DNA of 64,000 nt from Phyllosticta citribraziliensis (taxonomy: Eukaryota), in assembly GCF_038025025.1 (NCBI RefSeq), contig NW_027117351.1, forward strand, positions 620,001 through 684,000, read 5' to 3'. Positions 53,597 through 59,784 of the stretch are shown piece by piece; the stretch's first letter is position 1; every line of letters begins with the position of its first letter. A model generated the notes under the pieces. The model was not told the DNA's origin. It saw only the letters and a program-made list of their open reading frames with translations, and did not search any database. A program made the translations under genes and the position numbers.

Positions 53597-55975
53597 CTAA
53601 CGGGCTTCAGTTCGCTGAGGAGCCCATCCCTTTAACCACTGTCTTGCCCTGTCTAAATCTCCTCCTTCTGCTTCGAGTGCGGCAACGCACCATTCCAGTC
53701 CGTAGCCACCCCTTCCGCTAACATCGCTCTCTGCTGCCAGCATGTCTGCGAGTTTCCGCCTTTGTTGGCTGGATTCATCAGTGCAAAAGTGCAATGGACC
53801 TGCCGGAGTTTCTCCTCCTCTGACTGGCAGATTTTCCAACAAAGGCTTGATCAGAGGCAGTGCATCTTTGGTCGACACCGAAGCAGGCTGGATTCCCACA
53901 TTGGTGCGCCCTGTCTTGCAGTATTCATTGCGACAGGATGATTTTCCGCACCCAGTGAGGAGCTGCGTGAGATAGCGTCTTTCCACGCGGCGCCTGAGGG
54001 CTTTGCCGTCCGGATCGTTCATGCTGACGTAGAGAGGGCCAAAGCAAACACTGCAAAGCCCAATGTCGTTTCCTGGTCCACGCCCTAGCCGGGTTCCAGC
54101 TCGAGTGTCACCTGAACTGTTTGCTCCGTCCAAAGTGCGGCCGCAATTCAGGTTCCTGCACATTCGGGGAGAGGGACGGCTCAACCTTTCCAGGTCGTGG
54201 TGCTTCATGTGTATGTCCATTTCTCTTAGTCGTACGATTTTGTTGCAAAGATGGCACTCGGTCGTGCGTCCGCCATCGGCAAGCTCGTGAACCGTGAGAC
54301 CTGAAAGTAAGGCTTCCGCGTTTGGCTCGTCAGGATCTCCTTCTTGTGGAACGACAAGGTGGCAAAATTGACACAGAATCAACTTTTGCGGGCAGACGCT
54401 CGTCTTGTGTTGAGCTAATTGAGCCAGGGATGTGAAAGTGCGATCACAATTCTCGCATGTATGCGAGGCATGAAACAGGTCATCATGTTTCGCTCGGCTC
54501 AGCGGTGTGTTTCCCCAGAACGTATCGTGGGGGCAGTGCCAATGATTCTGGAATGCCTCTGAACGTTTTTGAAAGACCTGCCCACATCCCTTCGGGCATG
54601 CCGCATTGTTCCGAAGACAGAAGTTTTCGTGAAGAAACAAGGTGCGCTGAGGAACCCATTGCTGACAGTTTTTACACTGAACGTCGTCTGGATTCGGAGG
54701 AGCCTCGTAAGACGACACGCTACTGGGCAATTCCAAAGTGTCCTTGGGGTCGTATGGAGCCACCTTGATCTGAAACTTTCGAGGAACTTTCGTACTCTCC
54801 TCAATGCCAGGCCCCGCGTAGGCGTGGGCTGCTACCATCAAAGACTCGGCGTCCTCCAGCTCCACGTTTGTGGGCGACAATTTGATTCGTTTCGGATATG
54901 TGCTCAAAGTGTCGCCGAAGACAAACTCGTCCGCTCGTGGTTTAGCTCTTTGCCGGGGTCCGAATGGATTGACATACAAGTCCACTTCATCTTCCGGGTC
55001 GACTGCACTGAGCTCAATCTCAAGTCCTTGAGAACGTATCCATGATGGTATTTCGTAGTCGACATATTCTCCATCGAGAACTTGGCCCTCTACAACCGTC
55101 GTCAAGTCTAGCCTGCCTCCAGGCGAACTGCCAGCTGATGTTCCAGGGGCTCTTTGCTTCTTCTCTAGGATTTTCTTCAACGTTTCCTTAGCCTGCTCTT
55201 CGTTCAAAGGTTCAATGTCAACCTCCAAGTCGGTGTCGACGACGCATATGCCTTCTCCTTCTGGTTGGAAACCGTCCACAAGGAACCGAAAGACCTCTTT
55301 CTTTTGGCCGTTACGCCGACCCGTGGGTATCTCGATAATTTCGCCATTTGTTAGTGTCGTGAAGTTGGAGCGCAGGCGCTGTTCAAGCAGCGCTTTCCAG
55401 TCCTCAGGGTCGTAGCCCGCCTCAAGCGGTCTTAATTTCACGTAGGTGCCTTTTGGGAGCTGTCTCGAATGGATTGTAATCTTTTGGCGCTCGTGGCCAT
55501 TTCTTGACGCGTGCTCTGTGTCATCTGAATTCTTGTCCTCGTCCTCGTCGCTATTGTTTTCGCTTGAGCCAGGGGTTTCCTCGGCGACCAGGCCAAGTGA
55601 CTCTCTGAGAAATTTACTCAAGACGGCCTGGCCATCCTCTGCTGAGAATTCCCTTATCCCCGCATAGACGACCTTTCCATTGTCCGGATTCACCAGCCGA
55701 AAGGTAAGCGGGTGTGGTAACTGGTGATGGCGATCGCGGAGCTGCGACTCAGCTAGGCGTGCGTCTCTTTCGGCGGCGAACGAGTAGGGGTTGTAAGGGT
55801 CGAAGGTCGAGGTTAGCGCGTGATTCGAGGAAGACTCGGTGGTCACAAGCGGCGCGGCGGCCAGTAGTTGCTCGAGGGCCGAGGGCGGCAGAAGTAGCTT
55901 GTCGCCGGCGAGATGATGCGAGGCGGGCGCGACGTCGAATTGAGCGGACCATTCGAGGGTGGGCTGTTCGTCCAT
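53597..55975 (-). CDS. Long Ufd1-domain protein (792 aa) with multiple zinc fingers, an AZUL-like motif and a C-terminal UBA-like domain
   Basis: Ufd1 motifs GDKLLLPPSAL, YAGIREFSA, LPKGTYVKLRP, NFTTLT and VDTDLEVDI; CxxC..H..C fingers; RRYLTQLLTGCGKSSCRNEYC; GYGLEWCVAALEAEGGDLDRARQWL. Confidence 0.9.
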   Translation of the reverse strand: MDEQPTLEWSAQFDVAPASHHLAGDKLLLPPSALEQLLAAAPLVTTESSSNHALTSTFDPYNPYSFAAERDARLAESQLRDRHHQLPHPLTFRLVNPDNGKVVYAGIREFSAEDGQAVLSKFLRESLGLVAEETPGSSENNSDEDEDKNSDDTEHASRNGHERQKITIHSRQLPKGTYVKLRPLEAGYDPEDWKALLEQRLRSNFTTLTNGEIIEIPTGRRNGQKKEVFRFLVDGFQPEGEGICVVDTDLEVDIEPLNEEQAKETLKKILEKKQRAPGTSAGSSPGGRLDLTTVVEGQVLDGEYVDYEIPSWIRSQGLEIELSAVDPEDEVDLYVNPFGPRQRAKPRADEFVFGDTLSTYPKRIKLSPTNVELEDAESLMVAAHAYAGPGIEESTKVPRKFQIKVAPYDPKDTLELPSSVSSYEAPPNPDDVQCKNCQQWVPQRTLFLHENFCLRNNAACPKGCGQVFQKRSEAFQNHWHCPHDTFWGNTPLSRAKHDDLFHASHTCENCDRTFTSLAQLAQHKTSVCPQKLILCQFCHLVVPQEGDPDEPNAEALLSGLTVHELADGGRTTECHLCNKIVRLREMDIHMKHHDLERLSRPSPRMCRNLNCGRTLDGANSSGDTRAGTRLGRGPGNDIGLCSVCFGPLYVSMNDPDGKALRRRVERRYLTQLLTGCGKSSCRNEYCKTGRTNVGIQPASVSTKDALPLIKPLLENLPVRGGETPAGPLHFCTDESSQQRRKLADMLAAESDVSGRGGYGLEWCVAALEAEGGDLDRARQWLKGWAPQRTEAR

Positions 55976-56101
55976 GGCGTTGTGGTTCTGGCAAGAGAAC
56001 GACTGGACGGGGGTGTCGTGAACGAGAGGCGAGATGTAAATAAGGCAAAGGTGAAGGAAGCGTCGAATGCTGACAGAGAGATTCTGGAAGGTCCCACGTC
56101 A

Positions 56102-56140
56102 TCGGCTCTTGGCAGCCGAGTGATAAGGTAAGTACTTACC
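56102..56140. promoter_or_regulatory. Palindromic elements in the bidirectional promoter: CGG-N10-CCG inverted repeat and perfect GGTAAGTACTTACC
   Basis: tcggct..agccga at 56102-56119 and a 14-bp palindrome at 56127-56140, between ATGs at 55975 (-) and 56359 (+). Confidence 0.4.
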
Positions 56141-56358
56141 CCAGATTTCGCAGATCAGGAAGCTGTGGCGTGAGCTCCTGGTCCTGGTGGACAGTCAGAC
56201 TCCGCTGCCGCTACCGCTACTTCACTCACTGTTTTTTTCGCGCCCAACGGCCTCCCATCCTTCAACCACCCTCAACCACCCTCACTCTCTGCCAAACTCC
56301 GCCTCTTTTCCCTCGACCATCCCGACGATACCGCCGCCCTGATCTGAGACATCGTTCA

Positions 56359-58375
56359 ATGGCTTCGTCGTCGAATGACGCTACACCAACAACGCTATTC
56401 GACCTGCTGAACAACTCACTGCTGCTGCGCACTATTACACCCCATCTGCCCGTTGCCTCTCTTTTTGCCCTCGCCCGCGTTTCCAAATCTTTCTTCGACC
56501 TCATCACCAACTCTCCTGATGCCTTTCGCTACCTCGACCTCTCAGCCGTCAGGTCAGCCGCGGCCCCGTCGCACAAGCCACTCGATTCCGGCGCCATCAC
56601 ATGGCGCGCCGAACGTATGGACGAGGCCTTGACCGAAGATGAGTTCTATTCAGGTCCACTGAGAGGCATCTTCTCCAAGCTTCAAAGAAGGAACCTCCTG
56701 AAAAATGTCTATACTCTGGTTCTGGACGGCCTCAGCGTTCCTGCCGACCTGGTTCGCGAAATCATTGCCGAAGACCGGTTCAACGTCCGCATCCTCTCAA
56801 TCCGCGAGTGCACCCACCTCAATGAGAGAAAGTTGATGCAGGTCCTGAAATATGCTGTGCGGCCAACACGACCATCAGGCTCGCCTAGGTTGAAGGGACT
56901 TTATGTGTTTGGCTCCAAGGACCCGTCACCCTTCACGGACGCCATCCCGAAGCCGCAGAGGTCACCTCCTCGCACGCCAGAGAATATCGGGGGTGTCATG
57001 GCATCACAGGGCGCCCAGATTGGGGCAGAGTGGAACCAGAAGTCCTCAGAGGCCCTCAACACCGCTCTGGCCCGCTCTGAGCACAAGTGGTATCAAACTG
57101 CTGGGCGGGTCCTCCATAGACGCCCATCCCCCGAGTGGGCTGAGACGCTCAAGGCCTGCGAAGGGATCATCTATTTTGATGCCGTTTTATGTCGCGGCCC
57201 GCGGCACGACATTGAAACTGCATACACGCAGGGGTCTACGCCGCATCCTAAATCGTTTTTGGGTCCAGCAGTCGCAAACGTCGCGCTGGGGCCCACCGGC
57301 TGTCAGAGTTGCCACTCATGCCCTGAGGGTCCAGCCATTTTTGGAAAATCGCCGGCAACCCATCTCCCACTGCTGAGTCCTCCACCGCTGTGCTCTTCAA
57401 CAGTCCAGGCCGCGCAGAGGCCTTCTTCCGTCCCAGGCTCGCCCCCGCCCATCCTGATTGCGCGGTGCGAAGAATGTCTACGCGGCCGTTGGTGCGAACG
57501 ATGCAACAAATGGTGGGACGAAGACTGCTATTTTGGGTCTACAAGCAGCAATGCCGCAGCCATGACTTTGACCGCCATGCAGCAAGCCGAGCAGCTTCAG
57601 TCCATTACAAATGAGAATGGACAGCCGTCCAAGAACATCAAGGTACATATGGGTCTCTGTACTGCACAATGCCTCGTCGGTGAGATGATGGCCGGGGCCG
57701 GGAGCGCGGGCATGTGGGGATGAGTACCGCCATTGTCATCCCAAGACGAAACGACTCAAAAACCTCAAAAGCGTTGAACTGGCGCGGAGATGTGAGGATC
57801 ACCCATCACCCAGCAGAGCCCACCTGTCCAGCCTGGCACACAGAGCCTCTGGATCAACGTCTCATAATGCTGTTTGCGCGATTCAACGAATTCTGCCCCG
57901 CGGGAGCGCTCTCATTACCGCCCCGGCCCATCATTTCCTCAAAAATACACCTAGTCTATTCCAAACCGGAGCACCAGGGGGGCAGAGGTATGTCCCAGGA
58001 TTTTTGGCGAGCGCAGAAACGGCTGACAGGGGCTCGTCGCACTTTTCAGGGACATCGACCGTCTTCAACACTTGCGGGTGTCAAGCGCGACTGCTTTGGA
58101 TGCGGTCCCACATGCGTTGACTGCAAGACCTTGTACATTCGCGCGTGCCACAGGTGCCGCAACGAGTACTGCATCCTGGACAATGATGGCTCGTCGGCCA
58201 TTGCTGTAAGTGGCATTGTCTTCGCTCTCGATTTCCCATTTCCTCCATCCCTAGTTCGACGTGACTCCACCGTACATATGGCACAGCTGAAGAGTTCTGG
58301 ACTGATCTGTGGTCATCTTGGGAACAGTGCGATTGGTGCAACTTCAGTGGACGACGGACTGTCGAGCTCTATTGA
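56359..58375 (+). CDS. F-box-like/LRR-like protein with a Cys-rich C-terminus. Unspliced form ends at 57723 (454 aa); spliced form uses exons 56359-57642, 58050-58205, 58328-58375 (495 aa)
   Basis: F-box-like N-terminus (LFDLLNNSLLLRTITPHLPVASLFALARVSKSF), LRR-like strands (TLVLDGL, ILSIREC, LKGLYVF) and CxxC clusters; canonical splice signals around the downstream Cys-rich exons. Confidence 0.8.
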
Positions 58376-59784
58376 GTTCAAGCTGGTGCGCAACAACCGC
58401 GGACTTTTGGCTCGCCCCCTGTTCGTCCCCCTCCCTGCCACCCCAAAAAGCTTGATCTTTTGAAAGACGAAAGTCAAGATGATACCAGTCAGAAGAAGAA
58501 AAGACCAAACACCACACGACTCTCGGCATCCTAAAAGCTTCGGTTTCTTTCGGCCTTGTATTGGATAGCTGCGCCTCATGAATTTGCATCACGACACGGC
58601 GCGGGTCAGCTGCATTGGGTGAAACCAAAGAAACTCCCGCGAAAAAAAGAAAACCGAACCAAAAAATCTTTCCTACTCCGACAGAAGCATCTCCCAATCC
58701 GGACTTGGGATGGATGGGCAGAGATTGGCCTTGGGTATTGCTGCAGTTGGCATTGGCGACCACGAACCCTTTCTGGCTTGGTTTCCCATCACGAGATGAC
58801 GTTCTCCTCTACTCTCCTCCAATTCAGTCCTCTTTTGATTTTGCTCTCTTGAATCGTTTCTCATAATGGGCGACACCTCTCCACACTCACCCAGCTCTTG
58901 TGCGCGCTTTGTACAGAGATACCCTTCCTCCTCTTGCTGCTCCTCACCACGACCTCTTTCATCATCCGACAGACTCAATCGTCTTTGCCATGTGCGACTT
59001 TCACATCTCTCTCCCCTCCCTCACCTGTGTATATAGAAGTCGTCCGTCCGTCCATTCGGTTGCCCGCAATCCCCTACCCAACCAACCATTCAAAGCGCGT
59101 GCTGCGTGCATAGTGGCATGCAGGCATGCCTTGGCGGGCCCGGGCTGGCTCAGCTCAGCATGAGAAAGGCTAAACTGGGGATCGATGGATGAATGTATTG
59201 TAATCGTTAAGCTTATTATTTGTCGCCATTCGTCAGCTGCTGCGGGCGCGTATATGCGCTTTGCCCTGTCTACCTGGTACGTAGGCATGACGCTCGCTGC
59301 CTGGCCAGTGATGATGAGCCTAATAGGACTTGGGTGTGGTTGTCTTGTTTGTAGTCTGCTGCCAGGCGTGTAGGCAATTGGCGCTTTGATTTGTTGTTGG
59401 CCTTGACGATCTACATCTACAGACATGCATGTACTGCTGCTATGTACCTGTACTGTACTTGGCTCACTCAGCCTCCGGCCTTCTCCAAGCGCCGGCGGCG
59501 GCAGCGTCTACATACATATGTAGCATTACATCACATCAGGCAACAACCAACTCTAAAGTAAAACACACGACGCCACATCTTATGTATCTTGTCTTGTCTT
59601 GACTTACCGGCTTGCTTGCTTGCTTATCGTATCATGCACGCAGAGCACGCACCCATGGCAAAGCAAAGCATGCACGTACGCGCGTGTAGGCTCCACTCCA
59701 CACCACTCCACTCCACGCACTCGCCCACACCCAGTGGCAGTGGCCTCGACGCGTGGCTCCCTGGCTCACCACGCCAAAGGCTCA

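Follow-up and report, generated by a model that had tools for sequence, protein, structure and literature searches.

The window, i.e. the whole 64,000-nt stretch of the Phyllosticta citribraziliensis genome analyzed here, carries a gene for an F-box-like protein in which two 5′ splice sites precede a single acceptor, and the choice between them sets which of two C-terminal tails the protein receives (Table 1). Read-through of the proximal donor yields tail A, VHMGLCTAQCLVGEMMAGAGSAGMWG, with a stop codon at 57721-57723 and a protein of 454 aa (form A), and splicing from this donor continues in frame into a 67-aa tail B with four CxxC pairs plus C469, giving a protein of 495 aa (form B). Both translations, proposed in an earlier note on this DNA as a 26-aa read-through tail and a cysteine-rich spliced tail, were reproduced, as were all of its coordinates (AAG/GTACAT at 57642/57643, GCTGAC at 58022, TTTTCAG to 58049, and intron 2 at 58206-58327). 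The annotated P. citribraziliensis protein P0001 has the same length as the 495-aa form, ends in tail B and matches the shared part with 100% identity. Since the query used had only one genomic match, i.e. the F-box gene is single-copy in its own genome, the idea that tails A and B are paralogues was rejected. Long RNA contigs of the gene terminate at 59184 and 59213.

Table 1. Features of the F-box gene and its divergent neighbor (positions within the window)
Feature	Position	Strand	Remarks
UFD1-domain/XAF1-zinc-finger/AZUL gene	53597..55975	-	Divergent neighbor, often linked to orthologues; outside the switch
Shared exon 1, coding part	56359..57642	+	428 aa: F-box-like motif, short LRR-like solenoid, Cys cluster
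Cys cluster of exon 1			C315/C318, C370/C373, C379/C382, C390
Proximal 5′ donor AAG/GTACAT (form B)	57643..57648	+	Overlaps Lys-Val-His codons of tail A; RNA joint in 4/4 runs; GTA at 40/43 Val junction codons
Tail A, 26 codons + TGA	57643..57723	+	Contains C434, C438, GMWG
Predicted hairpin inside retained stretch	57773..57887	+	Modest stability, z -2.2
Predicted 9-bp stem	57891..57988	+	3′ arm ends on distal donor; alone not above chance, z -1.15
Distal donor GAG/GTATGT + 62-nt intron (form A)	57988..58049	+	Joint in run X2; X1 contig stops at 57988
Shared branch-like GCTGAC and acceptor TTTTCAG	58022; ending 58049	+	Common to forms A and B
Exon 2	58050..58205	+	Form B: tail B residues 429-480; form A: 3′ UTR
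Intron 2, 122 nt	58206..58327	+	Removed in contigs spanning it; joint in 3/4 runs
Exon 3	58328..59213	+	End of tail B (stop 58373-58375) + shared 3′ UTR

Among the 56 loci having 1 kb or more of upstream sequence, 30 show the neighboring gene head-to-head with the F-box gene; other arrangements are seen in 6. Such linkage is probably why orthologues of the F-box gene carry “ubiquitin fusion degradation” names and why there is a fused model, P0140, and it hints at a shared ubiquitin pathway.

Two splice forms in RNA contigs

The RNA evidence consists of assembled contigs from four runs, one recorded as RNA and three presumed to be RNA; such contigs give neither expression levels nor RNA 3′ ends. 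The 407-nt joint of form B, 57642>58050, is present in all four runs (X1, X2, X3 and X6), and the 62-nt joint of form A, 57987>58050, which connects GAG/GTATGT to CAG, was found in run X2 alone. In X2 the depth at the form A joint is 965 versus 1294 at the form B joint, and the same run holds a contig, with a depth of 937, that reads through the 62-nt intron. A contig from X1 spans 57614-57988 and ends exactly at the distal-donor branch, and one from X6 spans 57614-57969, ending short of the distal donor. For intron 2, the fourth run yields loose contig ends consistent with its joint. Forms A and B are both readily found in RNA contigs, with two donors joined to one acceptor, as in an alternative 5′ splice-site event. 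The tail-A mRNA arises either from the donor at 57988 or by retention of the 62-nt intron, and exons 2 and 3 become its 3′ UTR. The mutually exclusive C-termini that the earlier note had derived from one splice choice are therefore both present in RNA; its alternative terminal exons, however, give way to a second donor, GAG/GTATGT at 57988, which it had overlooked.

Binned depth is zero over intron 2 and over the divergent intergenic gap in X1 and X2, and X1 lacks cover over both the 62-nt intron and intron 2, a weak hint in itself. The lack of cover over intron 2 and the intergenic gap argues against a DNA origin of the contigs, though holes of this kind are weak evidence. We discarded an isoform ratio for X1, because the depth of 568 there averages across the shared 3′ part and is strongly biased toward the 3′ end. 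Run X2 also contains a 62-nt CT..AC joint at 59211-59274, corresponding to a spliced minus-strand transcript that overlaps the 3′ UTR end of the F-box gene.

Conservation of both tails and selection on tail A

A pattern-based call of tail type among the best 120 protein homologues assigned 94 to tail A, 22 to tail B and 4 to other endings, a split that cannot be taken as a ratio, since single-ORF callers produced most of the tail-A records; one model, P0008 from Lasiodiplodia, extends across both tails. Among 27 named records from a Leotiomycete search, whose query contained tail A, 19 were read by eye as A and 8 as B (20 A, 4 B and 3 other by script), and Lachnellula and Monilinia each show both tail types. 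The Sordariomycete search (120 records, by script) gave 90 B, 12 A and 18 other, with both types in each of Fusarium, Trichoderma, Metarhizium and Tolypocladium; tail A is reduced there to K-V-R-x-G-x-C-x-x-C, without GMWG.

At the DNA level we scored the best 80 of 120 metagenome loci, picked by the core motif alone, with tail profiles at thresholds of 12 and 11 bits, chosen after the scores were seen. Both tails occur in order in 61 of these 80 loci, in line with the proposal that the two are kept together at one locus; tail A alone is present in 9, tail B alone in 7 and neither in 3. Eight of the nine A-only contigs end 26-451 nt past the junction, and the ninth, L024, has a decayed tail B. 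Three of the B-only contigs resemble spliced cDNA, and four have a short intron and no tail A; cDNA-like contigs of another clade, L043 and L076, join the core to tail B. Two of the contigs with neither tail end early, and L044 has lost both. In a quick tree, the two-tail loci fall with named Dothideomycetes and Leotiomycetes and in three further, deeper groups; no locus of the set, in which Sordariomycete and Eurotiomycete genomic sequences are few or absent, grouped with Sordariomycetes. In all 50 non-duplicate rows with an identified acceptor (window included), acceptor and junction are in phase, which, together with the RNA joints, places the downstream exons in the same gene, as had been assumed, rather than in a separate one. 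Both products are conserved at one locus across distant taxa, as in conserved productive splicing.

Several loci depart from this layout. L048, L049, L050 and L058 have lost tail A and have a short intron, so that form B alone is possible. In L012 (4119-4200) and L013, tail A frameshifts after its second cysteine, C438, with a G-A-G-S..W-G-stop remnant in another frame, and P0075, from a 27-member cluster, has the same ending. In many related loci the tail-B exon is interrupted by an additional intron after its first CxxC pair; the window and other loci lack it.

Selection was assessed on 45 loci less than 90% identical, window included; these loci are related, and the counts are not independent. 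At the junction, 40 of them have GTA, 3 have GTC and 2 an Ile codon, so that GTA accounts for 40/43 Val codons there versus 115/676 (17%) upstream and 5/80 later in tail A. Across the 28 loci whose tail A has 26 codons, pN and pS are 0.22 and 0.74, compared with 0.20 and 1.0 for the core Cys cluster (27 loci). Modal identity in tail A by codon position is 0.84/0.88/0.59, falling to about 0.4 beyond the stop, and the stop codon itself is TGA in 36 loci, TAA in 6 and TAG in 3. C434 and C438 are invariant across 70 A-type rows. Judged by these alignments, tail A is under purifying coding selection, and the view that both tails are selected protein sequence, both being kept across loci, holds up. 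The GTA bias at the junction combined with the codon constraint on tail A indicates that the same bases are selected both as a donor and as a peptide.

The consensus distal donor is present in 27/42 loci versus 22/312 coding control windows, with a pattern fixed after inspection, and was not found in the other 15/42. In six loci of one clade, from two species groups (L026, L027, L028, L029, L069 and L072), the proximal donor has shifted upstream while staying in phase 0, the Val codon has become Ile, and the distal donor lies within the last Met codon of tail A. In all six, splicing to the shared acceptor is predicted to rebuild M-W-G-stop from the tail-B exon read in another frame. That MWG-stop survived such a rearrangement would be difficult to account for if the tail-A peptide were of no importance.

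The F-box/LRR-like core, its tails and the RNA between the donors

The F-box-like motif occupies approximately residues 13-55, with a Pfam PF12937 match at 23-52 (E 0.01, 16 bits versus a cut-off of 24.3); PF12937 is found at E≤0.1 in 25/50 aligned relatives, with a best value of 6.9e-05. Of the structure predictions suggested for both isoforms, that of the tail-B form is fairly confident (mean pLDDT 78.6, pTM 0.77, with 88-96 at residues 311-390 and 71-85 at 441-480), but that of the tail-A form is uninformative (mean pLDDT 56.6, and 33-40 over tail A), and its fold search returned nothing at E≤0.001. A predicted complex of the core with tail A and zinc scored 0.02 with no alignment used, and is not evidence either way. 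The best folds for the tail-B model are Skp2 (E 0.005), KDM2B (0.006) and FBXL5 (0.025), none of them at E≤0.001, and a wide fold search returned LRR proteins with Z up to 7.3. Like these FBXL-type SCF receptors, which it matches weakly in fold, the protein has N-terminal F-box-like helices followed by LRR-like repeats, but the repeats are fewer and we found no solved relative of its Cys-rich C-terminal domain. In FBXL5, C-terminal cysteines hold a metal cluster. Plant F-box proteins of the At3g27290 type (PF28114) also combine an F-box with a C-terminal domain and gave an ESM Atlas feature match of 0.85 with 136 shared features; this likeness, by features and not by alignment, is a lead only, and the C-terminal part alone gave no named match. 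On these models the protein looks like an FBXL-type receptor, and its gene product probably helps to tag proteins for destruction.

Profile, structure and feature searches connected the Cys-rich C-terminal part to no named family and no solved relative, and the best family matches of tail B are weak (IFT122 zinc ribbon, E 0.097; UHRF1 PHD region, E 0.14). The cysteines of the two tails lie at about equal spacing from the junction Lys, C434/C438 in tail A and C443/C446 in tail B, which continues with three more pairs and a Cys-x-x-His/Asp. Where tail A erodes, as in Sordariomycetes, L012 and L035, its Cys pair survives. It is plausible that the tails complete different zinc sites, as the earlier note had supposed, and the pattern of conserved cysteines agrees with this. 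Most non-Dothideomycete rows have Cys at position 387, and 114/120 rows of the first search have Asp there. In the Dothideomycete-like set, Asp stands at both positions where other classes have Cys387 and His472 (114/120 and 22/22, respectively), possibly reflecting a coupled change or the loss of a metal site.

Between the donors, 13 Pleosporales-Mytilinidiales loci and L011 carry an inverted repeat with its 3′ arm ending on the distal donor. Folding z-scores are -4.0 to -6.2 in 11 of those loci, -2.7 in L011 and -1.6 in L012, compared with -1.3 to +0.9 in 11 other loci. In the Pleosporales element the arms are 87% identical and the linkers 54%; L014 and L074 have lost the inner part and kept the closing stem, and the changed arms of L011 still pair. 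In the element columns 93.5% of cells are paired, with double changes in 3/38 pairs and values as high in 16/500 shuffles, i.e. weak covariation, computed on 9/13 loci after L010 was dropped as a near copy and L011, L014 and L074 for large gaps. In the window, the hairpin has arms similar to those of the Pleosporales element (TTGGCGCG/TTGCGCG), and the donor stem has a pairing probability of 0.89. No Rfam match at E≤1, TPP included, was obtained for window positions 56000-59500 and six loci. Leotiomycete loci have only about 20 nt from the stop to the distal donor, without such a stem, so that the hairpin appears to be a lineage-specific add-on; most simply, it would let an intron of 210-410 nt compete with one of 50-60 nt. 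The inner stems of the Pleosporales element (L005:4395-4450 and relatives; 85% identity) are as conserved in sequence as the closing stem, despite a deletion in two loci, and may represent a protein- or ligand-binding part.

Competing explanations and precedents

An ancient, productive alternative 5′ splice-site event, with two donors competing for one acceptor, is probably the explanation of the locus as a whole. A weak proximal donor overlapping the first codons of tail A would be set against a consensus distal donor past the tail-A stop, and both proteins would be made, as SCF receptors with the same F-box/LRR core. This core would end in an unpaired W-C/D-x-x-C half site that either tail could complete: the Cys pair of tail A would provide one metal site followed by the GMWG end, while the first pair of tail B would complete the half site and its further pairs would form extra sites. 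The likely outcome would be two SCF receptors differing in their C-terminal binding surface. In Pleosporales and relatives, the hairpin would pair the exon side of the distal donor, shorten the long intron and tune the A:B ratio. Against this reading, either tail can be lost: A is missing from four loci, B is decayed in L024, L044 retains neither tail, and in L012/L013 tail A is cut short after C438.

Form A bears features of an NMD target: two introns follow its stop codon, and its 3′ UTR extends over about 1.3 kb. In Neurospora, the EJC takes part in NMD (PMC6173133), and NMD may limit form A. If form A were an off switch destroyed by NMD, with tail A conserved only as an RNA signal or degron, the locus would be a case of regulated unproductive splicing, consistent with these features and with the arrangement in which a stop lies between two donors, the layout of the predicted unproductive “Type III” TPP riboswitches in PMC5882874. 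We consider this unlikely, since codon position 3 varies where positions 1 and 2 are fixed, stop codons are swapped, and MWG-stop is rebuilt in another frame, all of which points to selection on the peptide and not on the RNA; moreover, form A contigs are easily found. NMD could lower form A and yet not abolish its function.

Productive splicing might also be placed under the control of the RNA between the donors, acting as a non-TPP switch that responds to a ligand, metal, temperature, protein or possibly the gene's own product, and toggles the SCF receptor between two functional metal-binding tails. We hold out little hope for this idea; if true, a responsive RNA switch would change which proteins the fungus degrades. 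The 15 motifs of PMC5640933 are tied to other genes.

Production of tail A by polyadenylation inside the intron, i.e. by alternative terminal exons, is very improbable. The X6 contig that ends at 57969, before the distal donor, would agree with it, as would the 15/42 loci with no consensus distal donor, in view of which some lineages may use retention or polyadenylation. However, X2 contains the direct 57987>58050 joint and a contig through the 62-nt intron, the X1 contig ends exactly at the branch at 57988, no loose contig ends occur at the distal donor (contigs cannot show RNA ends), and no AATAAA-like hexamer was found downstream of the tail-A stop. Of the two outcomes that RNA had been expected to separate, the 57642/58050 junction was seen, but there was no sign of intronic polyadenylation. 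The notion that there is a single genuine tail, the second being a micro-gene of its own or an artefact of annotation, which could draw on public models mostly giving a single tail per record, is scarcely credible and largely refuted by the presence of both joints in RNA, the in-phase acceptors, the L043/L076 contigs and the selection on tail A.

The closest precedent for the productive two-donor event is, by analogy, SKI7/HBS1, described in PMC3597508 as an ancient fungal splice-site choice that gives two conserved proteins per gene, with lineages altering the mechanism or losing a form. SKI7/HBS1, however, uses alternative 3′ sites that add an N-terminal region, and both of its proteins have been shown (PMC3597508), whereas the F-box gene uses alternative 5′ sites with exclusive C-termini, its first donor overlaps coding sequence, and it is known from RNA and sequence. 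Fungal Type III TPP riboswitches resemble it in having an internal intron of 200-400 nt, two donors separated by an in-frame stop, and an RNA structure by a donor (PMC5882874), but the F-box locus has no TPP or other Rfam match, and instead of a dysfunctional product its retained stretch specifies a 26-aa tail under selection. Deeply conserved splicing that produces two functional proteins is uncommon among fungi (PMC3597508), and alternative 5′ sites make up about 13% of fungal events (PMC3925392). Our literature search found no paper on this F-box gene, though supplements, subscription papers or mentions by gene id could escape it; “F-box” is absent from the main text of PMC11694984 and PMC3925392, whose supplementary event tables could list an orthologue.

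The two-tail gene is real and conserved and has apparently gone undescribed, as one variant of a phenomenon that is known, though rare. It offers a test case in which two selected tails are carried by a likely ubiquitin-ligase receptor, a donor lies within codons and a hairpin sits on the competing donor, along with a clade reading one exon in two frames and natural A-only and B-only lineages. As annotation usually gives one form per genome, half the product is hidden in databases.
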